From Porphyrobacter sp. (lineage in GTDB: Bacteria; Pseudomonadota; Alphaproteobacteria; Sphingomonadales; Sphingomonadaceae), in the NCBI GenBank assembly GCA_016125555.1, contig WGLN01000012.1:11238-75237 (forward strand): 64,000 bases of DNA. The letters run 5' to 3'. Position numbers and translations under genes: made by a program. Below the pieces are notes generated by a model that had not been told where the DNA came from, searched no databases, and saw nothing but the letters and a program-made list of their open reading frames with translations. Of the stretch, positions 29,743 to 45,531 are shown piece after piece. Position 1 is the first letter of the stretch, and the number at the start of each line of letters is the position of its first letter.

Positions 29743-29880
29743 GAAAGCCGCACTAGCCTTTCGGCTCGATGGGGGAAAGAGTGCGCTTTACCGCTTGTGT
29801 TGCGCTTTCGTTTCGCTAGCGTCCCCCTCCAGCAACGCCGCCGCCGAGGCTGCGCGCGGCCAGTGGGAGAAATTTTTCGC

Positions 29881-31455
29881 ATGTTCCTCGACAGGATTAA
29901 GCCGCTCGACGCGATCCTCGCGACGGCGCAGAAGAAATCGCTGCAACGCTCGCTGGGATGGCTGCAACTGACGCTGCTGGGGATCGGCTGCGTGATCGGC
30001 ACGGGCATCTTTGTGCTGACCGCGGTCGGCGCGCAGAAGGCCGGGCCCGGGCTGATGGTCGCCTTCGCGATCGCCGGCCTCGTCTGCATCGTCGCCGCGC
30101 TGTGCTATGCCGAAATCGCCGCGATGATCCCGGTCGCGGGCAGCGCCTACACCTACAGCTATGCGACGATGGGCGAGTTCTTCGCCTGGACGGTCGGCTG
30201 GGCGCTGATCATGGAATACGCGATTGCCGCCTCTGCCGTGTCGGTCGGCTGGTCGGGGTATTTCAACGGCACCGTGCTGGGAGGGATGGGTATTGAACTG
30301 CCCGTCTGGCTCAGTGCCGGGCCGCTCGCTTTCGGCGGCGCCGAAGGCGGTTTCATCAACCTGCCCGCGCTGATCATCGCCCTGGTCGTGACCGCACTGC
30401 TGGTGGTCGGGACGAGCGAGAGCGCCAAGGTCAACGCGGTGCTGGTCGCCATCAAGGTGACCGCGCTGACCGCCTTCGTGGCGCTGACCCTGACCAGTTC
30501 GGATTTCGATACCAGCCACTTCAACCCCTTCCTGCCCGCCGGCGTGTTCGGCGGCTGGGGCACGGGCGTCGGTGCGGTCGGCGCGGCGGCGACGATGTTC
30601 TTCGCCTATGTCGGCTTCGACGCGGTTTCGACCGCGGCCGAGGAAACCAAGGACCCGCAGAAGAACGTGCCGATCGGTCTCGTCGGTTCGCTGCTGTTCT
30701 GCACGGTGTTCTACATCCTCGTCGCCGCCGGGGCGATCGGGACGATCGGCGGGCAGCCGATCATGGACGCGATGAACCTGCCGCTCGAAGCCGGTTCGCC
30801 CGAACTCGCGCGGCAGTGCGCGATGCCGCAATATGCCGATGCGCTGGTCTGCTCGAAGGAGCCGCTGGCGCATGTGCTCAAGATGCTGGGCTTTTCGACC
30901 ATCGGCAATCTCATCGGTCTGGCGGCGTTCATTGCGCTGCCTTCGGTGATCCTCGTGCTGATCTTCGGTCAGACCCGCATCTTCTTCGTGATGAGCCGCG
31001 ACGGGCTGCTGCCCGAGGCGCTCAGCCGGGTGCACCCGCGCTTCAAGACCCCGCACATCGTGACGCTGATCACCGGCCTCGCGGTGGCGATCGGCGCGGC
31101 GTTCTTCCCGGTCGGGCAGCTTGCCGACATCTCCAACGCGGGAACGCTCTACGCCTTCCTGATGGTGGCGATCGCGGTGCTGCTGCTCAGGGTCAAGGAT
31201 CCCGAGCGCAAGCGGCACTTCAAGGTGCCCTTCGTGTGGGTGATCGCCCCGCTGACGATCATCGGCTGCGTGCTGCTGTTCTTCAACCTGCCGATTGCCG
31301 CGATGCTGTTCCTGCCCGGCTGGGGCGCGATCGGGGTGGTGATCTACATGCTCTACAGCCGCAGCCATAGCCATCTGGGCCGCGGGATCGTCGAGGTGGT
31401 CGACGATGTCGAGGGCGAGGAAACGATGGTGCCGATCCATCCGGACCACAACTGA
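29881..31455 (+). CDS. APC-superfamily amino acid permease (cationic amino acid transporter-like)
   Basis: ATG at 29881 after GGGAGA. GIGCVIGTGIFVLTA signature. 524 aa, about 12-14 TM helices. Confidence 0.9.
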   Translation: MFLDRIKPLDAILATAQKKSLQRSLGWLQLTLLGIGCVIGTGIFVLTAVGAQKAGPGLMVAFAIAGLVCIVAALCYAEIAAMIPVAGSAYTYSYATMGEFFAWTVGWALIMEYAIAASAVSVGWSGYFNGTVLGGMGIELPVWLSAGPLAFGGAEGGFINLPALIIALVVTALLVVGTSESAKVNAVLVAIKVTALTAFVALTLTSSDFDTSHFNPFLPAGVFGGWGTGVGAVGAAATMFFAYVGFDAVSTAAEETKDPQKNVPIGLVGSLLFCTVFYILVAAGAIGTIGGQPIMDAMNLPLEAGSPELARQCAMPQYADALVCSKEPLAHVLKMLGFSTIGNLIGLAAFIALPSVILVLIFGQTRIFFVMSRDGLLPEALSRVHPRFKTPHIVTLITGLAVAIGAAFFPVGQLADISNAGTLYAFLMVAIAVLLLRVKDPERKRHFKVPFVWVIAPLTIIGCVLLFFNLPIAAMLFLPGWGAIGVVIYMLYSRSHSHLGRGIVEVVDDVEGEETMVPIHPDHN

Positions 31456-31480
31456 TCGCCGGCGCCCTGCCGGGACAACC

Positions 31481-31513
31481 AAGGGCCGCCCTCCAGGGCG
31501 GCCCTTTTGCTTT
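31481..31513 (+). terminator. Rho-independent terminator of the permease gene
   Basis: AAGGGCCGCCC TCCA GGGCGGCCCTT followed by TTGCTTTG. Confidence 0.75.
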
Positions 31514-31548
31514 GGGAGCGAAGAGCGATTGCCAAGCCCTGCGTGTTG

Positions 31549-31563
31549 GAACATAATAGGAAC
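31549..31563 (+). promoter_or_regulatory. Alphaproteobacterial LexA (SOS) box GAAC-N7-GAAC
   Basis: GAACATAATAGGAAC ends 2 nt before the imuA ATG. It is the complement of the GTTC-N7-GTTC operator. Confidence 0.75.
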
Positions 31564-31565
31564 AT

Positions 31566-32339
31566 ATGAGTCGTTCCCCCATGCCTTCACGTTTTTCCGG
31601 CACCTCTCCTGCCCGTCTCCTGTCGCGCCCGCGCGCACCCACCCGGTGGCGACCGGGCCTTTCTGCACAGCCGCTCCATTCCGAGATCTTCGCCTCCGCC
31701 GCCGAGGCGAGCGGGGCGGGGCTGGCGCTTGCGCTGGCGCGTGACGCCCTGAAGTCAACCGCCGGGCACGAAGGTGAGGACACGCGCCAGGTGCTGTGGG
31801 TGCAGGACCGCGCGGCAATCCGGCTCGGTGGGCGGCCCTGCGTCGCGGGCCTGCCGTCCGAACTTGCCCACCGCCTGATCCATGTCGCGGCGAAGAGCCC
31901 CGAGGATGCGCTGTTCGCGATGGAGGAGGGGCTGAGATGCCGCGACCTCGCCTGCGTGATCGGCGAGATCGCGGGCAACCCGAAGGCGCTCTCCTTCACC
32001 GCCTCGCGCCGCCTCAGCCTTGCCGCCGAGCGTCACGGCATCGCGCTGTGGCTGGTGCGGCTCGATGCCGTCCCTGAGCTTTCCTCGGCGCGGATGCGCT
32101 GGCGGGTGCGCGCCGCACCCTCTCCCCCGCCGCGCTGGAACGCCGATGCCCCCGGCACCGCCACCTGGCATGCCGAACTGTTCCGCGCCCGGGCCCATGC
32201 GCCCGGCGAATGGATGCTGAGCGATGACAACGGAACCTTGCGCCCCGCGCCTGCCGCCATCACCGCCGCCGCGCCGGATCCTGTCCGTCTGGCTCGCCCG
32301 ACTGTCGGTCGATCGCTGGCGGCTCGCGCACGCGCCTGA
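31566..32339 (+). CDS. imuA: ImuA (RecA/SulA-like component of the mutagenesis cassette); start uncertain
   Basis: 257 aa. The SOS box is immediately upstream. Sequence LHSEIFASAAEASGAGLALALA and a position upstream of imuB. Confidence 0.7.
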   Translation: MSRSPMPSRFSGTSPARLLSRPRAPTRWRPGLSAQPLHSEIFASAAEASGAGLALALARDALKSTAGHEGEDTRQVLWVQDRAAIRLGGRPCVAGLPSELAHRLIHVAAKSPEDALFAMEEGLRCRDLACVIGEIAGNPKALSFTASRRLSLAAERHGIALWLVRLDAVPELSSARMRWRVRAAPSPPPRWNADAPGTATWHAELFRARAHAPGEWMLSDDNGTLRPAPAAITAAAPDPVRLARPTVGRSLAARARA

Positions 32340-33852
32340 AGACCGCGCCGCCGCCGACGCCGCGCCGACTGCGCTGATCACCGAGACCGCGCACGGCCCG
32401 CGCATCGCCGCGGCCAATGATGCCGGGCTTCTCGCCGGCGCGCGCGCGGGCATGCTGCTGGCCGATGCGCGTGCGCTATGCCCCGAGCTTGCCGCGGTTG
32501 CCGCCGATCCCGCAGGCGATCTCGCCACCCTCGAAAAGCTCGCCCTGTGGGCGCAGCGCTGGGGGCCGTGGAGCGCAATGGATCCGCCCGACGGCGTGCT
32601 GGTCGACGTGACCGGCGCGGCGCACCTCTTCGGCGGCGAGGAGCGGCTGCTCGGCGATGTCGCGCGCGGCTTCGCGGCGCGCGGCCTGACGGTGCGCGCC
32701 GCGCTGGCGCCGACCGCGGGGGCGGCCTGGGCGCTCGCCCACTTCGCCGCGCCGGGCACGATCCTCGCGCCCGGTGACGATCCGCTGCGCCTGCTCGGCG
32801 ACCTGCCGGTCGCGGCGCTGAGGCTCGACGATGACGTGCTCACCGTGCTGCGCCGCCTCGGGATCAAGCGCCTCGGCGAACTCGCAGGGGTCAGCGGCGC
32901 GGGCGAGGACCCTGCGCGCGAGGCTGCCGCGCGCGATGCGCTGCACCGCCGTTTCCGCAACCGCCGCTCGCCTGCCGCCAACCCGCTGCTGCGTCTCGAC
33001 CAGCTGCTGGGCAAGGTGCCCGAGCCGCTGTTGCCGGTGCTCGCCCGGCCGCAGCCGATGGTCCAGCGCCGGCTGATGGAGCCGCTGCGCCACCGCAGCC
33101 TGCTCGACCGGGTGGTGGAAGACCTCGCCGAAGACATGGTGCGCACGCTCGAGGCGCGGGGGGAGGGGGCGCGGCGGCTCGAACTGGCGCTGTGGCGGGT
33201 CGATGGCGAGGTGCTGGTGCGCCGCATCGAACTCGCCGCCGCCACCCGCGAGGCCGGGCACATGCTCCGCCTGTTCGCCGCGCGGCTCGAGGATGTCGAG
33301 GCCGGGTTCGGGATCGAGACCGTGCAGCTGCGCGCCAGCTGGAGCGAACCGCTGAGCCTGTCGCAGTCCGATCTCGACGCCGCCGCCGAACAGCACGGCA
33401 CCGCGCTCGCCGCCTGCATCGACCGGCTGAGCGTGCGACTGGGCTCTGCGGCCGTCACCCGACCCGTCGCCCGCGCCAGTCACCTGCCCGAACGCGCGCA
33501 GGGCTGGCAGGCGCCGCTCGATCCCGTGCCCCCGGCGCAAGGGCGTCTCGCCTTCCACGCGCGCCCGCTCAAGCTGCTCGAGCGGCCCGAGCCGATCGCG
33601 GTGCTCTATGCCTCGCCCGACGGCTATCCCCAGCGGTTCCGGTGGCGCGGCTGCGTGCGCGAGGTGGTGCGGGTGGAGGGGCCGGAGCGGATCGCGCCCG
33701 AATGGTGGCGCGAACGCTCGACCGTGCGGCTGCGCGACTACTACCGCATCGAGGACGAGGCCGGGCGACGCTACTGGATCTACCGGTCGGGGCTGGCGGG
33801 GGATGGTCGCGGGGGCGTTCCGGAATGGTTCCTGCAAGGCCTGTTCGCTTGA
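32224..33852 (+). CDS. imuB: ImuB (Y-family polymerase-like, non-catalytic)
   Basis: 542 aa. N-terminus RILSVWLARLSVDRW is typical of ImuB. The only in-frame ATG gives a 116-nt overlap with imuA. Confidence 0.8.
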   Translation: MTTEPCAPRLPPSPPPRRILSVWLARLSVDRWRLAHAPEDRAAADAAPTALITETAHGPRIAAANDAGLLAGARAGMLLADARALCPELAAVAADPAGDLATLEKLALWAQRWGPWSAMDPPDGVLVDVTGAAHLFGGEERLLGDVARGFAARGLTVRAALAPTAGAAWALAHFAAPGTILAPGDDPLRLLGDLPVAALRLDDDVLTVLRRLGIKRLGELAGVSGAGEDPAREAAARDALHRRFRNRRSPAANPLLRLDQLLGKVPEPLLPVLARPQPMVQRRLMEPLRHRSLLDRVVEDLAEDMVRTLEARGEGARRLELALWRVDGEVLVRRIELAAATREAGHMLRLFAARLEDVEAGFGIETVQLRASWSEPLSLSQSDLDAAAEQHGTALAACIDRLSVRLGSAAVTRPVARASHLPERAQGWQAPLDPVPPAQGRLAFHARPLKLLERPEPIAVLYASPDGYPQRFRWRGCVREVVRVEGPERIAPEWWRERSTVRLRDYYRIEDEAGRRYWIYRSGLAGDGRGGVPEWFLQGLFA

Positions 33853-33907
33853 GGATGCCGATCCGCGCGCTCAGACTTCCTTTACCCGATTGTGCTAGGG
33901 AAGAGGC

Positions 33908-34246
33908 ATGAATCTGCACACGATCCCCCGCGCCTCGGAGCGCCGACCGCTCAGCCTGATGGTGAAGAGCCGGGTGCGCGCGCGCGCGGTGTTCGTGGAT
34001 CTCGTCGACATCTCGGAAGGCGGTTGCAAGATTCGCGGCAAGCCGGGATTCGCCGCGGTCGGCGACCGGGTGACCATGAAGGTCGGGGGCGTCAATGCGC
34101 CGCTGGGCATGGTGGCCTGGATCGACGGACCGCTTGCCGGAGTGGCCTTCGAGGGCGCGATGCACCCTGCGGTGCTCGATCACCTGACGGCGCAATTGAA
34201 CCCCAAGGGCAAGCGCAACCCGTCAAAGCCCGCGCAGTCGGCCTGA
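33908..34246 (+). CDS. PilZ-domain (c-di-GMP-binding) protein
   Basis: 112 aa. RxxxR (R8-R12, RASER) and DxSxxG (D34-G39, DISEGG) at canonical spacing. RBS GGGAAGAGG. Confidence 0.7.
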   Translation: MNLHTIPRASERRPLSLMVKSRVRARAVFVDLVDISEGGCKIRGKPGFAAVGDRVTMKVGGVNAPLGMVAWIDGPLAGVAFEGAMHPAVLDHLTAQLNPKGKRNPSKPAQSA

Positions 34247-34295
34247 CCGCCGCACAGGTCGCTTGCACGCTTTGCATTTGGCACCGGGAGCGTAG

Positions 34296-34310
34296 GAACA
34301 TATAAGGAAC
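34296..34310 (+). promoter_or_regulatory. Alphaproteobacterial LexA (SOS) box GAAC-N7-GAAC
   Basis: GAACATATAAGGAAC, 26 nt upstream of the radical-SAM ATG. Near-identical to the box at 31549. Confidence 0.75.
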
Positions 34311-34336
34311 GAAACAGCCGTTCCCCAAGGTTCCCA

Positions 34337-35593
34337 ATGGTTCATTACGCGCCTTCCAAACCCACCTTGCGCCAGAAGCTCGAGATTCTCGCCGATGCGG
34401 CGAAATACGATGCCTCCTGCGCGTCCTCGGGCACGGCGAAAAAGAACTCCTTGGGCGGGAAAGGCATCGGCTCGACCGAAGGAATGGGCATCTGCCACGC
34501 CTATGCGCCCGACGGGCGGTGCATCTCGCTGCTGAAGATCCTGCTGACGAATCACTGCATCTTCGATTGCCACTACTGCATCAACCGCAAGAGCTCGAAC
34601 GTGGCGCGCGCGCGCTTCACCCCGCAGGAGGTGGTCGACCTCACGCTCAATTTTTACCGCCGCAACTATATCGAGGGGCTGTTCCTGTCCTCCGGGATCG
34701 TGAAAAGCGCCAACCACACGATGGAGCAGCTGGTCGAGGTCGCGCGGATTTTGCGCGAGGAGCATGATTTTCGCGGCTACATTCACCTCAAGACCATTCC
34801 CGAGGCCGATGCGGAGATCATCCACCAGGCAGGCCTTTATGCGGACCGGGTCTCGATCAATGTCGAACTGCCGACCGACACCGGCTTGACCCGGCTCGCG
34901 CCTGACAAGAACGCCCGCCAGATCGAGGGGGCACTTGCGCGCACCAAGGATCGCATCCTCACCGCCAAGGATGAGCGCAAGCGTTTCCGCCATGCGCCGC
35001 GTTTCGCGCCTGCGGGGCAATCGACCCAGATGATCGTCGGTGCGGACGATGCCAACGACGCGGCGATCATCGGCAAGGCGAGCACGCTCTACTCGGCCTT
35101 CGGGCTCAGGCGCGTCTATTACAGCGCCTTCTCGCCGATCCCCGATGCGAGCGCCGTGCTGCCGCTGAAGCGCCCGCCCTTGCTGCGCGAGCACCGGCTC
35201 TACCAGTCGGACTGGCTGATGCGCTTCTACGGCTTCGCCCCGCAGGAGGTCGCAGACGCGGCCGAGGCCGATGGCAACCTGCCGCTCGATATCGACCCGA
35301 AACTGGCGTGGGCGCTGAAATTCCGCGCAAGCTTTCCCGTCGACGTCAACCGCGCACCTCGGGAGCTGCTGCTGCGCGTGCCGGGGCTCGGCACCAGGGC
35401 GGTGGCGCGCATCCTCGCCGTGCGGCGCCACCGGCGGCTGCGGCTCGACGATGTGGCGCGGCTGACGGCGTCGGTCGCCAAGGTGCGGCCCTTCATCTGC
35501 ACCATCGACTGGCGGCCGACGCTGCTGACCGACCGCGCCGACCTGCGCGGCCTTGTCGCACCGAAGCGGGAACAGCAACTGGAGCTGTTCTGA
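34337..35593 (+). CDS. Putative DNA modification/repair radical-SAM protein with a C-terminal helix-hairpin-helix
   Basis: 418 aa. CIFDCHYC (CxxxCxxC). N-terminus LADAAKYDASCASSG. HhH LLLRVPGLGTRAVARIL. Confidence 0.85.
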   Translation: MVHYAPSKPTLRQKLEILADAAKYDASCASSGTAKKNSLGGKGIGSTEGMGICHAYAPDGRCISLLKILLTNHCIFDCHYCINRKSSNVARARFTPQEVVDLTLNFYRRNYIEGLFLSSGIVKSANHTMEQLVEVARILREEHDFRGYIHLKTIPEADAEIIHQAGLYADRVSINVELPTDTGLTRLAPDKNARQIEGALARTKDRILTAKDERKRFRHAPRFAPAGQSTQMIVGADDANDAAIIGKASTLYSAFGLRRVYYSAFSPIPDASAVLPLKRPPLLREHRLYQSDWLMRFYGFAPQEVADAAEADGNLPLDIDPKLAWALKFRASFPVDVNRAPRELLLRVPGLGTRAVARILAVRRHRRLRLDDVARLTASVAKVRPFICTIDWRPTLLTDRADLRGLVAPKREQQLELF

Positions 35594-37041
35594 TGACCGC
35601 GATGCAGAATGTCTCCATTGGTTCGCACTACGCCGTCCACCTCCCCGCGCCGGACGATTTTGCCGTCTGGCGCGAGCGGGCGCGGGGGCTGGTGCAGTGC
35701 GACGTGCCGCCCGACCGGGTCAGCTGGATCGAACCGGGCGGGACGGGCGATCTGTTCGCCAGCGAAGGCCCCGCGCGCGGCGAAAAGCGCCTGCCCGTGC
35801 CGCCGGTTGACGCTCCGCCGGTGCGCGCCAGCAAACGGTTCCTCGAGCTTGCGCGCCATGCCGCGCTGCATTCGGACCCGGCCCGCTTCGGCCTGCTCTA
35901 CCGGGTGCTGTGGCGGCTCCAGCGCCATCCCCGGCTGATGGAGGACAAGGCCGACCCGGAGGTCCGCCGCATCGAGGAGCTCGCCAAGGCGGTGCGGCGC
36001 GATGCCCACAAGATGCACGCCTTCGTCCGCTTCCGCGAGGTCGAGGAGGAGGGCGGCACCCCCCACTTCGTCGCCTGGTTCGAACCCGATCACCACGTCG
36101 TGCGCAGCGAGGCGGGGTTCTTCATGCGCCGCTTCGCCAACATGCGCTGGTCGATCCTCACGCCGCGCGGGAGCATCCACTGGGACGGCGAGGTGATGCG
36201 CGAAGGCCCGCCCGCCCGGCGCTCCGACGCGCCGGGGGGTGACCCGGTCGAAGACCTGTGGCGCTCCTACTATGCCGCGATATTCAATCCCGCGCGGCTC
36301 AAGGTCGGCGCGATGCTGTCGGAGATGCCGAAGAAATACTGGAAGAACCTGCCCGAGGCCGAGCTCATCCCGCAGCTCATCGCCGGGGCACAGGCAAGGG
36401 AGGCGCGGATGGTTTCGTCGGGCAGCCTCGAACGCGGCGAGAAGCCGGAAACCCTGAAAGGCGTCGGCAAGGCGATCCACGCCTGCCGGATGTGCCCGAT
36501 CGGCGAACTCGACAACCACGCGGTGATGGGCGAGGGGCCGCGCGATGCCCCGCTGATGATCGTCGGCGAACAGCCCGGCGATCAGGAGGACCAGGCCGGA
36601 CGGCCCTTCGTCGGCCCGGCGGGTCAGCTGCTCGGCGAATACCTGACCCGCGCCGGGATCGACCGCGATGCGGCCTATGTCACCAACGCGGTCAAGCACT
36701 TCAAGTTCGTGTGGAAGGGCAAGCGCCGCCTCCACCAGTCGCCGGGCGCCAAGGAGATCGACACCTGCCGCTGGTGGCTCGAAGCCGAGCGCGACCTCGT
36801 GCGCCCGCGTATCGTGCTGGCGCTGGGAGCGAGCGCGGCGCGGGGGCTTTTGGGAAAGACCGTCAGCATCTCCAAGGTGCGCGGGGAGCCGATGATGCTC
36901 GAGGACGGCACCGAGCTGTGGGTCACGGCGCATCCCTCCTACCTGCTGCGCCTCGACGGCGCGGCGCGCGAGACGCAGGCGGCGCTGTTCGCGGCCGACC
37001 TCGCGGCGGTCAGGGAGCGGCTCGAAGACCTGGCGGGCTGA
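35593..37041 (+). CDS. DUF4130-like N-domain fused to a UdgX-type family-4 uracil-DNA glycosylase domain
   Basis: ATG overlaps the upstream stop (TGATG). 482 aa. CRMC (298-301), GEQPG (325-329), KRRLH (377-381, nt 36721-36735), HPSYLLR (447-453). Confidence 0.8.
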   Translation: MTAMQNVSIGSHYAVHLPAPDDFAVWRERARGLVQCDVPPDRVSWIEPGGTGDLFASEGPARGEKRLPVPPVDAPPVRASKRFLELARHAALHSDPARFGLLYRVLWRLQRHPRLMEDKADPEVRRIEELAKAVRRDAHKMHAFVRFREVEEEGGTPHFVAWFEPDHHVVRSEAGFFMRRFANMRWSILTPRGSIHWDGEVMREGPPARRSDAPGGDPVEDLWRSYYAAIFNPARLKVGAMLSEMPKKYWKNLPEAELIPQLIAGAQAREARMVSSGSLERGEKPETLKGVGKAIHACRMCPIGELDNHAVMGEGPRDAPLMIVGEQPGDQEDQAGRPFVGPAGQLLGEYLTRAGIDRDAAYVTNAVKHFKFVWKGKRRLHQSPGAKEIDTCRWWLEAERDLVRPRIVLALGASAARGLLGKTVSISKVRGEPMMLEDGTELWVTAHPSYLLRLDGAARETQAALFAADLAAVRERLEDLAG

Positions 37042-37042
37042 G

Positions 37043-40000
37043 ATGCCCGACGCCCCGCTCACCCCCGACAAGCGCACGCTCGACATCGATCCCGAGAGCA
37101 TTGCCGCGCCCGAACGCGCGCCCTTTGTCGAACTGGGCCTCGTCAGCTGCTTCAGCTTCCTGCGCGGAGCCTCGGACGCGGTGGATCTCGTGCTGGCCGC
37201 GCACGCCGCGGGCTATGACGCGATCGGGATCGCCGACGCCAATTCGATGGCAGGCGTGGTGCGCGTCCACACCGAGGCGAAGACGCTCAAGCTCAGGCCG
37301 GTGATCGGCTGCCGGATCGAGACGGTGGAGGGACTGGTCTTCCTCGCCTACCCCGAGGACCGCGCCGCCTATGGCCGCCTCACCCGCCTCATCAGCGCCG
37401 GACGAATGCGCACGCTCGAAGGCGAGTGGCAGGAGAAGGGCGTGTGCGAGATCGATTGCGTGATGCTCGCCGCCCATTCCGAGGGCGTGCAGCTGATCCT
37501 GCTCCCGCCCGACGATCTCGAGACCGCCTTCGCCCTCAGGGTGCCGAGCAATGTCGTCCCCTTTCCCCGTCCCGGCCCCCGAGCCGGGACCCCGCTGCCT
37601 TCCGACAGCGGCCCGCAAGAGAGCGGGGCCCCGGATCGGGTCCGGGGCGGGGAAAGCATGGAACTGAGCGCCCCTTTTTCCGAACTCATCCCCCACCTCG
37701 TCAACCAGTTGCCCACGCTCCGCCACCTTGCCGCCAGCTACCTCTACCGCGGCGACGACATCGCCCGGATCGCGCGTCTGGACAGCCTCGCGCGTGCCCA
37801 CGACCTGACGCTGCTCGCCACCAACGATGTCCACTACCACGCGCCCGAACGCCGCGCGCTTCAGGACGTGATGACCGCGATCCGGCACAAGACCACCGTC
37901 GCGGCGGCAGGGCACCTGCTCCACCCCAATGCCGAGCGGCACCTCAAGAGCCCGGGGGAAATGCAGCGCCTGTTTGCCCGCTGGCCCCACGCGATTGCCG
38001 CCGCGCGCGACGTGGCGGACCGCTGCCGCTTCAGCCTCGACGAACTGGCTTACGAATACCCGGAAGAAATCTACCCCGACGGCCATACCCCTCAGGCTTT
38101 TCTCGAAAGCGAAGTCTGGAAAGGGGCGGTGCGGCGCTATCCCGATGGCCTGCCTCATTCCGTCCGCCAGACGCTGGAGCGCGAGTTGGCGCTGATCACA
38201 AAGCTCGACCTTGCGCGCTACTTCCTCACCATCAAGGACATCGTCGATTTCGCGCGGGGGTGCGATCCGCCGATCCTGTGCCAGGGGCGCGGGTCGGCCG
38301 CCAATTCGGCGGTGTGCTACGTTCTCGGCATCACCGCGGTCGATCCGGCCAAGCACCAGCTGCTGTTCGACCGCTTCATCTCCGAGGAGCGCAAGGAACC
38401 GCCCGATATCGACGTCGATTTCGAGCACGAGCGGCGCGAGGAGGTGATCCAGTACATCTACAGGAAATACGGCCGCCACCGCGCCGGGCTGTGCGCGACC
38501 GTCATCCACTATCGCCCGCGCATGGCGATCCGCGAAGTGGGCAAGGCGATGGGCCTGTCCGAGGACGTCACCAGCGCCCTCGCGCGCACCGTATGGGGCG
38601 GGTGGGGACGCGAGATCACCGAGAAGCACGCCGCCGAAACCGGGATGGACGTGACCGACCCGCACTTGAGGCGCGTGCTCAAGCTGACCGAGCAGATGAT
38701 CGGCATGCCGCGCCATCTCGGTCAGCATGTCGGCGGCTTCATCCTGACCGAAGGGCCGCTGACCGAGACCGTGCCGATCGGCAACGGCGCCATGCCGGAA
38801 CGCAGCTTCATCGAGTGGGACAAGGACGACATCGAGGCATTGGGCATCCTCAAGGTCGACGTGCTGGCGCTGGGCATGCTGACCTGCATCAGGAAATGCC
38901 TCGATCTGCTGGCGGCGCATCACGACCGCCCGCTCACCCTCGCCACCGTCCCGCGCGAGGACCCGGAGACCTACGCGATGCTGCGCAAGGGCGATTCGCT
39001 CGGGGTGTTCCAGGTCGAGAGCCGGGCGCAGATGAACATGCTCCCGCGCCTGCGCCCGCGCGAGTTCTACGATCTCGTCATCCAGGTCGCGATCGTGCGG
39101 CCTGGGCCGATCCAGGGCGACATGGTGCACCCCTATCTCAAGCGCCGCCGGGGCGCGGAGCCCGTGCAGATTCCCGCACCCGCCCCCGAACACGGGCCGC
39201 CGGATGAATTGACCAGCATCCTCGGACGCACGCTGGGCGTGCCGATCTTCCAGGAACAGGCGATGAAGATCGCATTGGATGCGGCGAAGTTCTCCAGCCT
39301 CGAGGCCAACCGGTTGAGGAAGGCGATGGCGACCTTCCGCAGCCGCGGCATGGTCGACGAGCTTCAGGACATGATGGTCGAACGCATGGTCGCGCGCGGA
39401 TATGACCGCGACTTCGCGCAGCGCTGCTTCAACCAGATCCGGGGTTTCGGCGAATACGGCTTTCCCGAAAGCCACGCGGCGAGCTTCGCGCAGCTGGTTT
39501 ACGTGTCGAGCTGGCTCAAGTGCCATTACCCCGCCGCCTTCGCCTGCGCGCTGCTCAATTCGCAGCCGATGGGCTTCTACGCGCCCGCGCAGATCGTGCG
39601 CGATGCGGCCGAGCACGGGGTCAGGGTGCTGCCGGTCGACGTGAACCATTCGGACTGGGACTGCACGCTGGAAGGCGCAGCCCTGCGCCTCGGCCTGCGC
39701 CAGATCGACGGGCTTCCCGAACACATCGCCGCCGCGCTCGTCGCCAGCCGCGAAGAAGGCGGGGCCTATCGCGACATCGCCGGCCTGCGCGAGCGGGCGG
39801 GGCTTTCCCCTGCCCATATCGAGCGGCTCGCCAGCGCTGATGCCTTCACCTCGCTGGGGCTGTCACGCCGCCAGGCGCTGTGGGACGCGAGGAGCCTTGT
39901 CGCCGCACCGGACCTGCCGCTGTTCCGCGCCGCCGGTGTGCGCGAGGAGGGGGCCGAGCGCAGGGCCATCGCGCTCCCCGCCATGCCGCTGTCCGAGGAG

Positions 40001-40570
40001 GTGGTCGCCGATTACCAGACCACCCGTCTCAGCCTGAAGGCGCATCCGATGGCCTTCCTGCGCGCAGGGCTCGCTGCGCGCGGCTTCGTGCGCGCCTGCG
40101 ATCTGCGCGCGAGGAAGTTCCGCAGCATGGTGCAGGTCGCCGGCGTGGTGCTGATCCGCCAGCGCCCGGGCAGTGCCAAGGGGGTGTGCTTCATCACGCT
40201 CGAGGATGAGACCGGGGTCATCAACCTGGTGGTCTGGCCCGATCTCAAGGAAAAGCAGCGCAAGGTGGTGATGGGCGCGCGGCTGATGGAGGTGCGCGGG
40301 CGCGTCGAATATGACGACGAGGTGATCCACGTGATCGCCCATCACATGACCGACGCGACCGATGCGCTCCACGCCTTGTCGGACGATCTGCTGGCCGCCC
40401 CGCTGGCGCGCGCGGACCATGTCAATGCGCCGCTGTTGGGACGAAAGCCCCCGCAGGAGCGCGAGGCGCTGCGCGCGCGCGACATGATCGACGAACTCGC
40501 ACCCCGGCCCAATGTCACCGGCCATCCGCGCGATCACCGCATCCTGCCGAAATCACGCGATTTTCATTAG
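37043..40570 (+). CDS. dnaE2: Error-prone DNA polymerase III alpha-like subunit DnaE2
   Basis: 1175 aa. N-terminal PHP signature FVELGLVSCFSFLRGAS. The ATG is 1 nt after the upstream stop. Confidence 0.95.
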   Translation: MPDAPLTPDKRTLDIDPESIAAPERAPFVELGLVSCFSFLRGASDAVDLVLAAHAAGYDAIGIADANSMAGVVRVHTEAKTLKLRPVIGCRIETVEGLVFLAYPEDRAAYGRLTRLISAGRMRTLEGEWQEKGVCEIDCVMLAAHSEGVQLILLPPDDLETAFALRVPSNVVPFPRPGPRAGTPLPSDSGPQESGAPDRVRGGESMELSAPFSELIPHLVNQLPTLRHLAASYLYRGDDIARIARLDSLARAHDLTLLATNDVHYHAPERRALQDVMTAIRHKTTVAAAGHLLHPNAERHLKSPGEMQRLFARWPHAIAAARDVADRCRFSLDELAYEYPEEIYPDGHTPQAFLESEVWKGAVRRYPDGLPHSVRQTLERELALITKLDLARYFLTIKDIVDFARGCDPPILCQGRGSAANSAVCYVLGITAVDPAKHQLLFDRFISEERKEPPDIDVDFEHERREEVIQYIYRKYGRHRAGLCATVIHYRPRMAIREVGKAMGLSEDVTSALARTVWGGWGREITEKHAAETGMDVTDPHLRRVLKLTEQMIGMPRHLGQHVGGFILTEGPLTETVPIGNGAMPERSFIEWDKDDIEALGILKVDVLALGMLTCIRKCLDLLAAHHDRPLTLATVPREDPETYAMLRKGDSLGVFQVESRAQMNMLPRLRPREFYDLVIQVAIVRPGPIQGDMVHPYLKRRRGAEPVQIPAPAPEHGPPDELTSILGRTLGVPIFQEQAMKIALDAAKFSSLEANRLRKAMATFRSRGMVDELQDMMVERMVARGYDRDFAQRCFNQIRGFGEYGFPESHAASFAQLVYVSSWLKCHYPAAFACALLNSQPMGFYAPAQIVRDAAEHGVRVLPVDVNHSDWDCTLEGAALRLGLRQIDGLPEHIAAALVASREEGGAYRDIAGLRERAGLSPAHIERLASADAFTSLGLSRRQALWDARSLVAAPDLPLFRAAGVREEGAERRAIALPAMPLSEEVVADYQTTRLSLKAHPMAFLRAGLAARGFVRACDLRARKFRSMVQVAGVVLIRQRPGSAKGVCFITLEDETGVINLVVWPDLKEKQRKVVMGARLMEVRGRVEYDDEVIHVIAHHMTDATDALHALSDDLLAAPLARADHVNAPLLGRKPPQEREALRARDMIDELAPRPNVTGHPRDHRILPKSRDFH

Positions 40571-40585
40571 GTTGGGGCGCGTTCC

Positions 40586-41275
40586 TCAGCTCGCCTCGAG
40601 CGCATATCCGGCCGAGCGCACGGTGCGGATCGGGTCCTTCGCGCCCTCAATCCCGATCGCCTTGCGCAACCGGCGGATGTGGACGTCGACCGTGCGCAGC
40701 TCGATGTCCGAGCCGGTGCCCCACACCCCGTCGAGCAACTGCCCGCGGCTGAACACCCGGCCCGGGCTCTCCATGAAGAACTTCAGGAGCCGGTATTCGG
40801 TCGGACCCAGTTGCAGCGCACGGCCGCGGCGCTGGACCTTGTGCGCGACCGGATCGAGGCGGATGTCGCCGACCTCGATGGTCTCGCCGGCGAGCGCCGG
40901 ACGAATGCGGCGCATCACCGCCGCAACGCGGGCAAGCAGCTCGCGCGGAGAAAAGGGCTTGGTCAGATAGTCGTCCGCGCCCGTTTCCAGCCCGCGCACC
41001 CGGTCGTCCTCCGCCTCGCGCGCGGTAAGCATGATGATCGGGACGTGGGCGGTGTCCTTGTCGCGGCGCAGACGGCGGCACACCTCGATCCCGCTGGTGC
41101 CCTCGATCATCCAGTCAAGGATGATGAGATCGGGAACATCTTCGCTCGCCAGCACCAGCGCCTCGTCACCGTCGCCGGTGCAGCGGACGTTGTAGCCCTC
41201 GTTCTGGAAACGGTATTCGAGCAGTTCGGACAGGGCCGGGTCGTCTTCGACCAGCAGAAGTTTGGCAGCGGACAT
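40586..41275 (-). CDS. phoB: Phosphate regulon response regulator PhoB
   Basis: 229 aa. Receiver plus winged-helix OmpR/PhoB domains. Adjacent to phoU-pstBAC. Confidence 0.93.
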   Translation of the reverse strand: MSAAKLLLVEDDPALSELLEYRFQNEGYNVRCTGDGDEALVLASEDVPDLIILDWMIEGTSGIEVCRRLRRDKDTAHVPIIMLTAREAEDDRVRGLETGADDYLTKPFSPRELLARVAAVMRRIRPALAGETIEVGDIRLDPVAHKVQRRGRALQLGPTEYRLLKFFMESPGRVFSRGQLLDGVWGTGSDIELRTVDVHIRRLRKAIGIEGAKDPIRTVRSAGYALEAS

Positions 41276-41321
41276 GCGGATGATGCCTCCTCGTGCCCCT
41301 CAGGGGCGGTGCCCGAAGCTA

Positions 41322-41350
41322 TGTTTCATTTCGGCTACAGTTTGATGAAA
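41322..41350 (-). promoter_or_regulatory. Pho-box-like 7-4-7-4-7 array upstream of phoB (also an inverted repeat GTTTCAT/ATGAAAC)
   Basis: The minus strand reads GTTTCAT caaa CTGTAGC cgaa ATGAAAC. It forms an AT-rich island 47 nt upstream of the phoB ATG. Confidence 0.35.
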
Positions 41351-41388
41351 CCGGCTCCGGCCATTTTTCCACAATCGCCGTGCTGCGC

Positions 41389-42057
41389 CTACCGGTCGCC
41401 CTCGGGCGGGTAGGCGCCGGTCGCGGCGAAGTGGACCATCTCGGCGACGTTGGTCGCGTGGTCGCCGATGCGCTCGATATTGCGGGCGACGAAGAGCAGC
41501 TGCGCGGCGCTCGAAATGGTCGAAGGATTCTCGACCATGTGGCTGACAAGATTGCGGAAGATACTGTTGTAGAAGGCATCGACCTTGACATCGGTGGCGA
41601 TCACCTCGCGGGCGAGGTCGGGGTCGCGCGCGGCATAGGCGGTGAGCACGTCGTGCACCATCTCGCCCGCCAGTTCGCCCATCGCGGGAAGCAGGGTGAG
41701 CGGCTCGAACCGGGCGCGGCCCTCGATCATGCCGACCCGCTTGGCGATGTTCTTCGAATAGTCGCCGATCCGCTCGACCACGCCGCCGATCTTGAGCGCG
41801 GCGATCACTTCGCGCAGATCGTCGGCCATCGGTGCGCGCAGGGCGATGATCCGCACCGCGAGCTTGTCGACCTCGGTCTCGAGCGCGTCGATGCGCTTGT
41901 CGCGGGCCACCACCTTCTCGGCCAGCTCCTGATCGCCGCGCACGAGCGCATCGAGCGATTCCTGGATCGCGACCTCGGCGAGCCCGCCCATCTCGGCGAT
42001 CAGCCCGCGCAGGCGGGTGATGTCCTCGTCGAACGCCTTGACCGTATGTTCGGCCAT
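41389..42057 (-). CDS. phoU: Phosphate signalling complex protein PhoU
   Basis: Trimmed to the ATG at 42057 ([13 protein letters not shown]...), which overlaps the pstB stop. Two ERIGDxxxN(I/V)A repeats. Confidence 0.92.
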   Translation of the reverse strand: MAEHTVKAFDEDITRLRGLIAEMGGLAEVAIQESLDALVRGDQELAEKVVARDKRIDALETEVDKLAVRIIALRAPMADDLREVIAALKIGGVVERIGDYSKNIAKRVGMIEGRARFEPLTLLPAMGELAGEMVHDVLTAYAARDPDLAREVIATDVKVDAFYNSIFRNLVSHMVENPSTISSAAQLLFVARNIERIGDHATNVAEMVHFAATGAYPPEGDR

Positions 42058-42824
42058 CAGCCGTACCTTCCTGTGATGTAGTCCTTCGTCCGCTCCTCGA
42101 TGGGATTGGTGAAGATTTCGGATGTGGGGCCGTATTCCACCATTTTGCCGAGGTGGAAAAAGGCGGTGCGCTGGCTGACGCGAGCGGCCTGCTGCATCGA
42201 GTGGGTGACGATGACGATGGCGTAGCGGCCCGAGAGCTCGTCGATCAACTCCTCGATCTTGGCGGTGGCGATGGGATCGAGCGCGGAGGCAGGCTCGTCC
42301 ATCAGGATCACCTCGGGATCGACCGCGATGGCGCGCGCGATGCACAGCCGCTGCTGCTGGCCGCCCGACAGCGCCGTGCCCGAATCCTCGAGCCGGTCCT
42401 TGACCTCGTCCCACAGTCCGGCGCGGGTCAACGAGCGTTCGACGATCACGTCGAGATCGGCCTTCTTCTCGGCGAGGCCGTGAATCTTGGGGCCGTAGGC
42501 GATGTTCTCGTAGATCGACTTGGGGAAGGGATTGGGCTTCTGGAACACCATGCCCACGCGCGCGCGCAGCTGGACCACGTCCATCCGCTCGCCATGGATG
42601 TCCTCGCCCTCGAGCTCGATGAGGCCCGTCACCCGGGCGGCGGCGATGGTGTCGTTCATGCGGTTGAAGCACCTGAGGAAGGTCGACTTCCCGCAGCCCG
42701 AGGGACCGATGAAGGCGGTGACGTAGTCGGGCGAGATGTCGATCGACACGTCGTCGATCGCCTTCTTGTCGCCGTAGTAGACCGAGACGTCGCGCGCGCG
42801 GATCTTCGCGTTCTCGTCCGTCAT
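42057..42824 (-). CDS. pstB: Phosphate ABC transporter ATP-binding protein PstB
   Basis: Trimmed to the ATG at 42824 ([18 protein letters not shown]). Walker [10 protein letters not shown] and signature LSGGQQQR. Confidence 0.95.
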
Positions 42825-42841
42825 CTTGGGATGGATATAGG

Positions 42842-44149
42842 TCACCAGCGTTTCTCGAACTTGTTGCGAAGGTAGATGGCGAGGCCGTTCATGGCGAGCA
42901 GGAACGCGAGCAGCACGATGATAGCCGCGCTGGTGCGCTCGACAAAGCCGCGATCGATTTCGTCCGACCACAGGAAGATCTGCATCGGCAGCACGGTGGC
43001 GGGCGAAGTGAAACCTTCGGGCGGGGTGGCGACGAAGGCGCGCATTCCGATCAGCAGCAGCGGCGCGGTTTCGCCCAGCGCGCGCGCCATGCCGATGATC
43101 GTTCCGGTCAGCATCCCCGGCAGCGCAAGCGGCAGCACGTGATGGAACACCACCTGCATCGGCGATGCGCCCACCGCCAGCGCGCCGTCGCGGATCGAGG
43201 GCGGCACCGCCTTGATCGCGTTGCGCCCCGAGATCACGATCACCGGCATGGTCATCAGCGCCAGCGTCATGCCCCCGATCAGCGGGGCGGAGCGCAGGTT
43301 CGGGAAGGCCGAGAGGAAAATCGCGAGGCCCAGCAGGCCGAAGATGATCGAAGGGACTGCCGCAAGATTGTTGATCGACACCTCGATGAGGTCGGTCCAG
43401 CGGTTCCGGGGAGCATATTCCTCGAGATAGAGCGCCGAGAGGACCCCGATGGGAAAGGCCAGCGCCAAGGTCACAAGCATGGTCAGGATCGAGCCCTTGA
43501 GCGCGCCCCAGATGCCCACCGCCTGCGGGCTGGTCGCATCCGAGCGGGCGAGGAAGCCCCAGTCCCAGTTCTTCGCCAGCGCGCCCTTCGCGGCGAGCCG
43601 TGCGGCGAGCGCCTGCATTTCGGGCGAACCTTCGCCCTCCAGCCCGGCGGCGAGATCCGACGAGGCGGGCAGGTGGAAGGTCTCACTGCGCCCGATCAGG
43701 CCCGGATCGTCCGCCAGCGCCTTGGCGACATCGCGCCAGGCGTCGGACGAAAGCTGCGCCGCGGCATCGGCGCCGAGCTGCTTTTCGGCGAAGAAGGAGA
43801 CGACTTGCGGCAGACCCTGCATCTCGAGCGTCTGCACCGCGCTCGGCGCAGTCAGCGAGACGGCATCGCCGCTGATGCCGCTCGCCGGGAAGTCGATGGT
43901 CACGGCCAGCTCGGCACGCTGGAAGCCGCCGATGCCGTTCAAGAGCATCGTGCCGAGCAGGAACACCAGCACCGCCACCGAGAAGGCCACCGCGCCGAGG
44001 CCCATCAGCCGGAAATTGCGCTCGGCCCGGTATCGCTTGGCGAGCCGCTTCTCGAAGGCGGGCGTGCGGGTCGGGCCCATGGCTTCGGGGCGGCCTGAGG
44101 CGATCGCGCCGGCGATGGAGCCCGAGGGGGGAAGGGCGGAACTACTCAT
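42842..44149 (-). CDS. pstA: Phosphate ABC transporter permease PstA
   Basis: 435 aa and multi-TM. The ATG overlaps the pstC stop (ATGA). Confidence 0.9.
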
Positions 44150-45531
44150 TCATAGGCCTCCCGGAAGCGCTTCACCACGCGCAGCGCGACGAAATTGAGC
44201 GCCAGCGTCACCATGAAGAGCACAAAGCCGAGCGCGAAGGCGCTCAGCGTCGCCGGGTGGTCGGTGCTCTGCTCCCCGGTCAGCAGCTTGACGATCTGCA
44301 CGGTGACGGTCGACATCGGCTTGAGCGGATTGGCAGTGAGGTTTGCGGCGGGCGATGCGGCCATCACCACGATCATCGTCTCGCCGATGGCGCGGCTCAC
44401 CGCCAGCATGATCCCCGCGACGATGCCGGGCAGGGCTGCCGGGAAGAGCACCCGGCGGATGGTTTCGGACTTGGTCGCCCCCATCGCCAGGCTGCCGTCG
44501 CGCATCGCATTGGGCACTGCGGCCATCGAATCGTCCGCCATCGAGGAGACGAAGGGAATGATCATCACCCCCATCACCACGCCCGCGGCGAGCGCGCTTT
44601 CGGTGGAGGCGCCCGAGATGCCGAGCGCCACCGCCGCGTCGCGGATCGCCGGCGCGACGGTCAGCGCGGCGAAATAGCCGTAGACCACGGTGGGCACCCC
44701 GGCGAGGATCTCGAGCAGCGGCTTGACCCACTGGCGCACCCGCGGATTGGCATATTGGGTGAGATAGACCGCGCTCATCAGCCCGAGCGGAATGGCGACG
44801 AGCATCGCGATGATCGCGCCGATGAAGATCGTTCCCCAGAACAGCGGCACCGCGCCGTAGCGCGTCGGGTCGATCGCGTCGGGGCTGACCATCGTGTCCG
44901 GACCCCATTTGGTCCCGAACAGGAAATCGATCGGCGAGACCACACCGAAGAAGCGCACCGTCTCGAACACGAGGCTTCCGAAGATGCCGAAGGTCGTGAG
45001 GATCGCCACGAGCGAGGCGAGCAGCAGGATGATCATCACCGTGCGCTCCACCCGGGTGCGGGCGCGGAAATCGGGGCGCAGGCGCAGGAAGGCGAAGGCA
45101 CCGCCGGCGAGCGCGATCAGCACGGTCACGGTGATGCCGATGAGGTTGTAGCGCGAGATCGCCTCGCGGAACGGCTCGACCAGCGGCTCGGCGGCATCGT
45201 TGAACACGCCGGGGGCACTGCCCTGCGCCACCGCACGCGCCTCGCCGAGGAAGGCATCGCGCTCGAAGCCGAAGGCGGGCAGGTCGGCGGCGGCGGGCGA
45301 GGCGAGCACGCTCTGGGTGACAAGGCCGGGCGCGATCGCCGACCACAGCGCGACGAAGGCGAGCACCGGCAACGCGGCCCACAGCGCGACGTACCACGCA
45401 TGGTAGACCGGGCGCGAGGCCGGGCGCAGGGCGGGATCGCTGCTCTGGAAGCTCCACGCCTTCGCGCGGCCCGCCAGCCACCCGGCAAGGCCGAGCCCGA
45501 TGGCAATCAGGATGAGCGTGATCGGCGACAT
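44146..45531 (-). CDS. pstC: Phosphate ABC transporter permease PstC
   Basis: 461 aa and multi-TM. First gene of pstCAB. Confidence 0.9.
   Translation of the reverse strand: MSPITLILIAIGLGLAGWLAGRAKAWSFQSSDPALRPASRPVYHAWYVALWAALPVLAFVALWSAIAPGLVTQSVLASPAAADLPAFGFERDAFLGEARAVAQGSAPGVFNDAAEPLVEPFREAISRYNLIGITVTVLIALAGGAFAFLRLRPDFRARTRVERTVMIILLLASLVAILTTFGIFGSLVFETVRFFGVVSPIDFLFGTKWGPDTMVSPDAIDPTRYGAVPLFWGTIFIGAIIAMLVAIPLGLMSAVYLTQYANPRVRQWVKPLLEILAGVPTVVYGYFAALTVAPAIRDAAVALGISGASTESALAAGVVMGVMIIPFVSSMADDSMAAVPNAMRDGSLAMGATKSETIRRVLFPAALPGIVAGIMLAVSRAIGETMIVVMAASPAANLTANPLKPMSTVTVQIVKLLTGEQSTDHPATLSAFALGFVLFMVTLALNFVALRVVKRFREAYE

Follow-up and report, generated by a model that had tools for sequence, protein, structure and literature searches.

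Why is the gene for the error-prone polymerase DnaE2, a canonical SOS gene, found directly behind a radical S-adenosylmethionine (radical SAM, rSAM) gene and a gene for a DUF4130/UdgX fusion protein, and not behind imuA and imuB? The question is raised by a 64-kb stretch of DNA from Porphyrobacter sp. (contig WGLN01000012.1), here called the window, which served as our main reference and in which gene identities were assigned by profile searches (Pfam, TIGR/NF models). In the window, imuA, imuB and dnaE2 are not contiguous: a PilZ-domain gene (pilZ), the rSAM gene and the DUF4130/UdgX gene, together 3.2 kb, lie between imuB and dnaE2. With a probability of roughly 0.78, we consider this locus to be an ancient SOS block that is family-wide in the Erythrobacteraceae, with a LexA-regulated rSAM-DUF4130/UdgX module nested between imuB and dnaE2 of the mutagenesis cassette.

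Three genes behind one LexA box

From the sequence of the window, it is clear that the three genes are packed very closely. The rSAM stop codon overlaps the DUF4130/UdgX start (TGATG, 35591-35595), and a single nt separates the DUF4130/UdgX stop from the dnaE2 ATG (TGAgATG, 37039-37045). An earlier note on this DNA had described both junctions, a box at 34296-34310 that lies 26 nt 5′ of the rSAM open reading frame, and a near-identical box at 31549-31563 before imuA-imuB; all four are present at these coordinates, the last being 2 nt 5′ of the imuA ATG. The gene identities that it had proposed, namely a radical SAM enzyme with a CIFDCHYC motif and a helix-hairpin-helix, a DUF4130-UdgX protein and dnaE2, agree with the profile scores. 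It had further read the three genes as one unit with no operator reserved for dnaE2, and this also holds, as no LexA box is present between UdgX and dnaE2 in 63/63 loci having all three genes, and a consensus scan predicted no sigma-70-like site within the rSAM or UdgX genes (34400-37100). A separate dnaE2 operator is thus ruled out, none being found at any locus. Terminator-like sites on the gene strand were likewise not predicted anywhere in the window from imuB to the end of dnaE2. It is therefore well supported by the gene anatomy that rSAM, DUF4130/UdgX and dnaE2 constitute one LexA-boxed unit with shared regulation. Because all six genes of the window block (imuA, imuB, pilZ, rSAM, UdgX and dnaE2) have a single orientation, read-through from the imuA promoter into rSAM-UdgX-dnaE2 may occur there as well.

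LexA boxes and promoters

The alphaproteobacterial LexA operator is GTTC-N7-GTTC, read here as GAAC-N7-GAAC. The window holds four exact matches, against 1.19 expected by chance. Two of them are the boxes before imuA and rSAM. The other two, 33817-33831 (minus strand, within imuB) and 62936-62950 (minus strand), have GC-rich spacers and are probably non-functional chance occurrences, a count that fits the chance expectation.

For a comparative count, we have collected 80 loci that surround fusion-protein homologues (1.515 Mb in total), in which 157 exact boxes are found, 77 of them just 5′ of rSAM, 52 5′ of imuA and 28 elsewhere. Since 129/157 boxes are positioned at two orthologous promoters, and these positions are strongly conserved, the boxes are genuine and chance matching is ruled out as their source. 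The distance between box and rSAM is 2-26 nt in nearly all related loci, and the consensus is GAACATATAAGGAAC 5′ of rSAM and GAACATAATGGGAAC 5′ of imuA.

Both window boxes also contain a -10 element, CATAAT in box 1 (from the promoter scan) and TATAAG in box 2 (read by eye). The imuA promoter was the sole sigma-70-like match of the consensus scan in 31300-41300; the scanner demands a T at position 6 of the -10 element, so that the rSAM promoter with its TATAAG went unreported, and such a sigma-70 consensus scan captures alphaproteobacterial promoters poorly in general. A box lying over the -10 element is the geometry expected for a repressor operator, and we infer from it that LexA binds at both places.

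Conservation across the Erythrobacteraceae

The order rSAM-DUF4130/UdgX-dnaE2 on a single strand is found at 63/72 Erythrobacteraceae loci, which come from Erythrobacter, Porphyrobacter, Qipengyuania, Aurantiacibacter, Altererythrobacter, Citromicrobium, Allopontixanthobacter and metagenome-assembled genomes (MAGs). A UdgX-family protein identical to that of the window is annotated in a Porphyrobacter MAG, which places the source of the window in this family. The linkage is thus family-wide, and a one-off rearrangement, the possibility that the earlier note had named as damaging to its proposal, is ruled out. Between the UdgX stop and the dnaE2 start there are -1 to 4 nt at 53 of the 63 loci, 12 nt at one and 100-145 nt at the remaining nine. 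These nine longer gaps are long near-perfect palindromes with no LexA box inside, and the rSAM-UdgX gaps of 88-337 nt in some genomes are likewise filled by palindromes and free of a LexA box. The folding energies of the palindromes are -44 to -218 kcal/mol, and they look like repetitive extragenic palindromic (REP) or miniature inverted-repeat transposable element (MITE)-like insertions between cistrons that leave the operon unbroken. The idea that the junction gaps hide promoters is ruled out, the gaps being filled by these near-perfect, REP/MITE-like palindromes. Several palindromes share a length of 148 nt and the ends TCCCCTCCCGC...GCGGGAGGGGA; palindrome-split junctions occur at the loci that we have labelled L002, L003, L008, L009, L012, L025, L031, L032, L035, L038, L045, L048, L050, L055, L057, L058 and L064.

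The interval on the other side of the unit is far less constant. In many relatives, imuB and the rSAM box are 1-6 kb apart, and the interval holds unrelated genes on the opposite strand (carbonic anhydrases, TerC, an alpha/beta hydrolase, a Rce1-like protease, or a PilZ gene on the other strand), with rSAM-UdgX-dnaE2 intact. Because these opposite-strand genes separate imuAB from rSAM-UdgX-dnaE2 in many genomes, the two are separate units: judged by gene order, the invariant unit is [box]-rSAM-UdgX-dnaE2, and imuAB is a neighbour unit with its own box. The description of dnaE2 as detached from imuA-imuB, given previously, stands for the transcription units of other genomes, and it overstates the arrangement of the window, where the pair is nested between imuB and dnaE2. 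The flanks of the block are constant throughout the family, with panB and an amino-acid permease gene upstream and phoB-phoU-pstBAC downstream.

Loss of the mutasome genes and history of the block

dnaE2 is missing from the nine remaining Erythrobacteraceae loci, and so is imuAB in every case. At eight of them (L037, L051, L053, L054, L058, L063, L066 and L070; the window flanks used for comparison were 28870-31455 and 40586-45531), the boxed rSAM/UdgX pair is retained at the unchanged chromosomal site, with panB on one side and phoB on the other; L053 has kept a co-oriented pilZ as well. Apart from contigs cut at an end, no locus was found with imuAB and without dnaE2, or the converse. An extensin-like_C gene is present 3′ of UdgX in several of the eight pair-only loci.

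In a neighbour-joining tree of rSAM+UdgX, the eight pair-only loci are scattered over at least four positions, all of them surrounded by genomes with the full block, and the window lies deep inside a clade that has the full block. When pairwise distances are compared, those for DnaE2 correlate with the UdgX and rSAM distances at r of 0.64-0.69, and with the ImuB distances at r of 0.58; DnaE2 thus tracks UdgX and rSAM at least as well as ImuB, which fits vertical co-inheritance. From the shared flanking genes, the tree positions and the distance correlations, the simplest history would be a single ancient nesting, after which the mutasome genes were jointly lost on at least four occasions.

Feature layout and neighbouring genes

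Table 1. Features of the SOS block in the Porphyrobacter sp. window
Feature	Coordinates	Strand	Remarks
Terminator-like hairpin	31481..31506	+	Stem of 11 bp with 9 GC pairs, then T-rich tail
Promoter-like site TTGCCA-17-CATAAT, imuA	31529..31557	+	10/12 matches; -10 within LexA box 1
LexA box 1, GAACATAATAGGAAC	31549..31563	+	2 nt 5′ of imuA ATG (31566)
imuA-like gene	31566..32339	+	Opens the mutagenesis cassette; weak NF033429 match
imuB, Y-family polymerase-like with ImuB-C domain	32224..33852	+	Pfam IMS, IMS_C and DUF6504 above cutoffs
PilZ-domain gene	33908..34246	+	Pfam PilZ 27 bits (cutoff 22.5); RxxxR and DxSxxG motifs
Promoter-like site TTGGCA-17-TATAAG, rSAM operon	34278..34306	+	Read by eye; -10 within LexA box 2
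LexA box 2, GAACATATAAGGAAC	34296..34310	+	26 nt 5′ of rSAM ATG (34337)
Radical SAM enzyme, TIGR03916	34337..35593	+	571 bits (cutoff 343.5); CIFDCHYC; C-terminal helix-hairpin-helix
DUF4130/UdgX fusion	35593..37041	+	TIGR03915/DUF4130 at ~residues 20-256; UdgX-type family-4 uracil-DNA glycosylase (UDG) at ~258-473
dnaE2 (imuC), error-prone polymerase III alpha paralogue	37043..40570	+	Distal cistron; NF004225 1385 bits (cutoff 939)

The hairpin listed first in Table 1 closes the upstream amino-acid permease gene and forms the 5′ limit of the SOS block; at the other side, a convergent phoB-like gene begins 15 nt past the end of dnaE2. The imuA-like gene scores only 28 bits against the NF033429 ImuA model (cutoff 150) and has no Pfam match, and its assignment is supported by the LexA box, by the place 5′ of imuB and by the fact that related loci have kept the gene too. 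For imuB there are two start candidates: the open reading frame opens at 32224, 116 nt within imuA, and the public gene call (L001) starts at the equivalent of 32452. The tblastn similarity in relatives reaches into the imuA/imuB overlap (32224-32452). For the fusion protein, the two halves score 222 bits with TIGR03915/DUF4130 (cutoff 112) and 309.5 bits with the TIGR03914 UdgX family (cutoff 190).

The PilZ-domain gene at 33908-34246, between imuB and rSAM, was absent from the earlier note. Its product has intact motifs for the binding of cyclic di-GMP (c-di-GMP), RxxxR (R8-R12) and DxSxxG (D33-G38). The gene is co-oriented between imuB and the rSAM box in one large clade of the family; in the other clade, PilZ is found on the opposite strand in the imuB-rSAM interval (L021 6586-7014, L037 8209-8607, L034, L043, L048 and L067).

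Motifs of the radical SAM and UdgX proteins

The CxxxCxxC cysteines of the rSAM protein are C74, C78 and C81. An alignment of eight sequences, ranging from Alphaproteobacteria to Bacteroidota, shows three further invariant cysteines N-terminal to this motif, C28 (DxSCASxG), C53 (GICH) and C62 (DGRC), which suggests an auxiliary iron-sulfur (Fe-S) cluster in the TIGR03916 family. When more sequences are aligned, some of them shorter at the N-terminus, C53 is nearly invariant, and C28 and C62 drop from the conserved list. The papers that we consulted make no mention of a second Fe-S cluster. The rSAM gene is the most conserved of the block (mean pairwise distance 0.135), with 49-76% identity across Alphaproteobacteria, Betaproteobacteria and Bacteroidota. 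A sequence search against the PDB gave nothing below E = 0.4, meaning that rSAM has no sequence homologue among the solved structures, and a structure prediction made from ⩾90% identical sequences only reached a mean predicted local distance difference test (pLDDT) value of 39.

Single-chain rSAM-helix-hairpin-helix-DUF4130 fusions are present in public metagenomes (P0363, P0365 and P0366, 666-729 aa). In addition, a published AlphaFold 3 model predicts an rSAM-DUF4130 complex in which DUF4130 resembles a non-catalytic RecJ/DHH-like nucleotide-binding module (bioRxiv 10.64898/2026.08.19.745780). These Rosetta-stone fusions, matched by the modelled complex, are evidence that rSAM and DUF4130 act as one unit. 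An anti-phage defence role was considered and rejected, there being no PADLOC match for rSAM, the fusion protein, PilZ or ImuA.

The UdgX domain aligns with Mycobacterium smegmatis UdgX structures at E = 2e-44 and ~45% identity. In the alignment, motif A reads IVGEQPGDQED against the mycobacterial GEQPG (with Q in place of A/G), the R-loop reads KRRLH against KRRIH, and motif B reads HPSYLLR against HPS(S/A)(L/V)(L/V)R, with Y at the fourth position and all other positions matching. The Fe-S cysteines of the window domain are kept, and the crosslinking His is kept in all fusions aligned; GEQPG, the R-loop with its His and motif B are common to all five other proteobacterial fusions aligned. 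The M. smegmatis protein excises uracil and crosslinks covalently to the apurinic/apyrimidinic (AP) site (PMC4787834, PMC10359453). The statement in the earlier note that the gene pair had "no demonstrated chemistry" is thus wrong for the UdgX domain.

A variant is seen in Azospirillum brasilense Sp7 (plasmid p2, L084 8206-9636), in which the UdgX domain is without the first family-4 Fe-S Cys pair, with RSEPL where other fusions carry CxxC and the remaining UdgX motifs intact. Two further proteins, P0056 (UdgX fusion, 83% identical) and P0351 (rSAM, 92% identical), are labelled 'MAG: Hydrogenophaga sp.', each with a longest contig of 52,152 bases; identities this high point almost certainly to a contig of the Erythrobacteraceae that was placed by mistake in a betaproteobacterial MAG.

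Evidence against a functional tie to DnaE2

Several observations weigh against the reading of the locus as one SOS block. In all lineages sampled outside the Erythrobacteraceae, the rSAM/UdgX pair forms a two-gene operon by itself, namely at eight Sphingomonadaceae loci, on five other alphaproteobacterial replicons and on one Burkholderia replicon, and neither dnaE2 nor imuB was found within flanks of ⩽10 kb. Parabacteroides and 80 Bacteroidota-like metagenomic loci have rSAM + DUF4130, and the Parabacteroides partner is without a UDG domain, so that the rSAM/DUF4130 core can occur with no UDG at all; conversely, the mycobacterial UdgX is a stand-alone protein of ~210 aa with neither an rSAM nor a DUF4130 neighbour. 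Within the family, the pair outlives imuAB and dnaE2 at 8/9 loci and is, on this distribution, independent of DnaE2. Finally, co-transcription in this organism is something we infer from the anatomy, and the strong hairpins between UdgX and dnaE2 at nine loci could attenuate read-through.

The surroundings of the stand-alone pairs mark the pair as an SOS module in its own right. A GAACATnTAnnGAAC-type box is located just 5′ of the pair in Novosphingobium, Paracoccus, Phaeobacter, Azospirillum and Agrobacterium vitis, and the Burkholderia pair is preceded by a TACTGTATATACATACAGTA box (CTGT-N8-ACAG). No dnaE2 adjacency was found in the seven sampled plasmid/chromid contexts, and the flanks of the 80 Bacteroidota-like metagenomic loci gave no match for dnaE2, imuB or imuA. 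The small open reading frames adjoining stand-alone pairs had no DUF6504 match, and no stand-alone ImuB-C gene was thus found beside them.

A proposed course of events

For the nested SOS block, we propose the following order of steps. LexA would bind the GAAC-N7-GAAC boxes over the -10 elements and repress two promoters, those of imuA and rSAM. Upon DNA damage, imuAB (with pilZ where present) would be released from the first promoter, and the second would give a tricistronic rSAM-DUF4130/UdgX-dnaE2 mRNA, from which dnaE2, having no operator of its own, would be translated by coupling to the upstream cistron. Judged by the motifs that it shares with the M. smegmatis protein, the UdgX domain would excise uracil and cap the abasic site covalently via its R-loop His. 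The rSAM/DUF4130 proteins may act on the same DNA through a radical reaction, and DnaE2 with ImuA/ImuB would then synthesise past what is left.

The functional tie that we favour is a hand-off passing directly from UdgX/rSAM to DnaE2, which we regard as plausible, with the odds still against it. We favour it for three reasons: the fusion has long been retained while the adjoining interval was repeatedly invaded by other genes; an independent dnaE2-rSAM-DUF4130 operon exists in Nonlabens; and E. coli without dinB or umuDC tolerates UdgX poorly, growing badly when UdgX and Ugi are expressed (PMC4787834). The Nonlabens case is the operon SRAP-?-DinB-DnaE2-rSAM-DUF4130 of Nonlabens dokdonensis DSW-6, divergent from lexA, which is listed in the supplement of PMC3765255 and represents a second, independent dnaE2 linkage of the pair in another phylum.

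A stronger form of this idea, in which rSAM/DUF4130-UdgX serves the ImuA/ImuB/DnaE2 mutasome as a front end dedicated to lesion processing, we consider decidedly unlikely. SOS-induced UdgX would in that case act on uracils where single-stranded DNA is exposed and leave abasic sites capped by protein; trimming or resolving the adduct would fall to the radical SAM enzyme, and DnaE2 would copy across. If true, this would be a bacterial, damage-induced and uracil-directed pathway of mutagenesis and tolerance, loosely parallel to the deaminase/UNG/translesion hypermutation of vertebrates; UdgX would gain its missing physiological role and the TIGR03916 family a substrate.

Alternative explanations

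The rival that survives best is one of regulatory convenience, to which we give a little less than an even chance. It says that a LexA-controlled pair landed between imuB and dnaE2, where the insertion was harmless as both units were already SOS-regulated, and that dnaE2 came to rely on the new promoter; pair and polymerase would share a regulon and no pathway. The self-sufficient, LexA-boxed operons of every other lineage sampled, as well as the persistence of the pair after at least four joint losses of imuAB and dnaE2, are what it would predict, and the lack of any other promoter for dnaE2 would account for the tight udgX-dnaE2 junction. It accounts less well for an arrangement that was kept family-wide although the imuB-rSAM interval was repeatedly invaded, for the second, independent dnaE2-rSAM-DUF4130 linkage in a Bacteroidetes genome, and for the toxicity of UdgX in E. 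coli being worse without translesion polymerases. Even with a purely regulatory linkage, the locus would be a clear illustration of SOS operon remodelling with the control logic unchanged.

A second rival concerns the chemistry, and we regard it as unlikely. Here rSAM/DUF4130 would be a direct-reversal or base-modifying enzyme ('SplB-like' or thymine-modifying, for a UV or radical lesion), with UdgX only a base-flipping recognition module, and uracil and abasic sites would not be real substrates. A core without any UDG domain in Bacteroidota and the position of rSAM as the most conserved block gene agree with such a role, and a 2013 neighbourhood survey, which placed DUF4130, the rSAM and a UDG within the contextual network of ImuB-C/SRAP operons, named the rSAM 'SplB-like' and suggested thymine modification for it (PMC3765255). 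However, every proteobacterial fusion examined has kept the full set of catalytic UdgX motifs, the crosslinking His among them, which argues against a recognition-only role since a recognition module would not need them, and rSAM has no detectable sequence similarity to solved structures, spore photoproduct lyase included.

That dnaE2 has a promoter of its own within the udgX coding region, the three genes not being one transcription unit and the junction reflecting gene packing, is highly improbable: the weakness of the sigma-70 scan for alphaproteobacterial promoters and the nine related loci that tolerate 100-145 nt hairpin insertions 5′ of dnaE2 speak for it, but no promoter-like site was predicted in 34400-37100, 53/63 junctions are ⩽4 nt, and a LexA box before dnaE2 is missing in 63/63 loci although dnaE2 is a canonical SOS gene.

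Taken together, the family-wide nested block joins three items that are known and unexplained: the glycosylase UdgX, whose crosslink to DNA is covalent and very stable, the highly conserved and damage-induced radical SAM/DUF4130 pair of several phyla, and the ImuABC mutasome. The Erythrobacteraceae hard-wire these three into one conserved LexA-controlled block, which is the strongest genomic hint so far that UdgX, rSAM/DUF4130 and ImuABC act on related intermediates. What makes the locus valuable is the clue that it gives to the roles of UdgX and of the radical SAM family TIGR03916, which is uncharacterised.

Comparison with known systems

The nearest functional analogy to the UdgX part, not a homology, is offered by SRAP/HMCES/YedK, a damage-response protein that also forms a covalent abasic-site adduct. 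Its crosslinking to abasic sites is established chemistry; the SRAP fold and nucleophile are unrelated to those of UdgX, and SRAP does not excise a base. We know of no rSAM partner of SRAP. Genes for SRAP are, like the pair in the window, linked to translesion polymerase operons (PMC3765255).

True homology is found with the M. smegmatis UdgX (PDB 6AJO, 6AIL and others), which shares GEQPG, KRR(I/L)H, HPSxLLR and the Fe-S cysteines with the window domain. The window UdgX differs from it in being fused to DUF4130 and, by its junctions, in apparently being translationally coupled to rSAM and DnaE2. Our literature search on UdgX found no mention of a radical SAM partner.

The Nonlabens operon resembles the window in the physical linkage of the rSAM/DUF4130 pair to dnaE2 in an SOS operon; it differs in phylum, in having dnaE2 upstream of rSAM, and in that a UDG domain is unlisted. 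Like the imuABC cassette of Caulobacter, the window has an imuA-like gene, imuB and dnaE2 in this order on one strand, with a LexA box before the first. The difference is that the window dnaE2 lies behind a second LexA-boxed promoter, with 3.2 kb of genes intervening. Split versions of imuA-imuB-dnaE2 are noted in a passage of PMC3765255 that cites Erill 2006, and we have not found the Erythrobacteraceae rSAM-UdgX-dnaE2 arrangement described in our literature search.

The closest relative is the SOS UDG/radical-SAM operon COG1573-COG4277 (Caulobacter, Verrucomicrobia, Bacteroidetes), which has the same gene families and LexA control. Its SOS control has been reported for Alphaproteobacteria, Verrucomicrobia and Bacteroidetes (PMC8565304 and its references 7 and 65), so the LexA regulation of the pair was known before, and the description of the locus in the earlier note as its best candidate for an uncharacterised SOS system goes too far; rSAM and TIGR03915 genes are also part of the DdaA damage regulon of Acinetobacter (PMC12392091). 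The alphaproteobacterial form of the operon even has the GAAC-N7-GAAC box directly 5′ of rSAM, as in the window. In contrast to the published and sampled cases, which are all stand-alone, the window adds dnaE2 as a third cistron and places the whole inside the imuAB-dnaE2 cassette. The parts are already known, and what is new is not a new kind of system but a conserved operon variant, an SOS rSAM/UdgX module nested in the imuAB-dnaE2 cassette.

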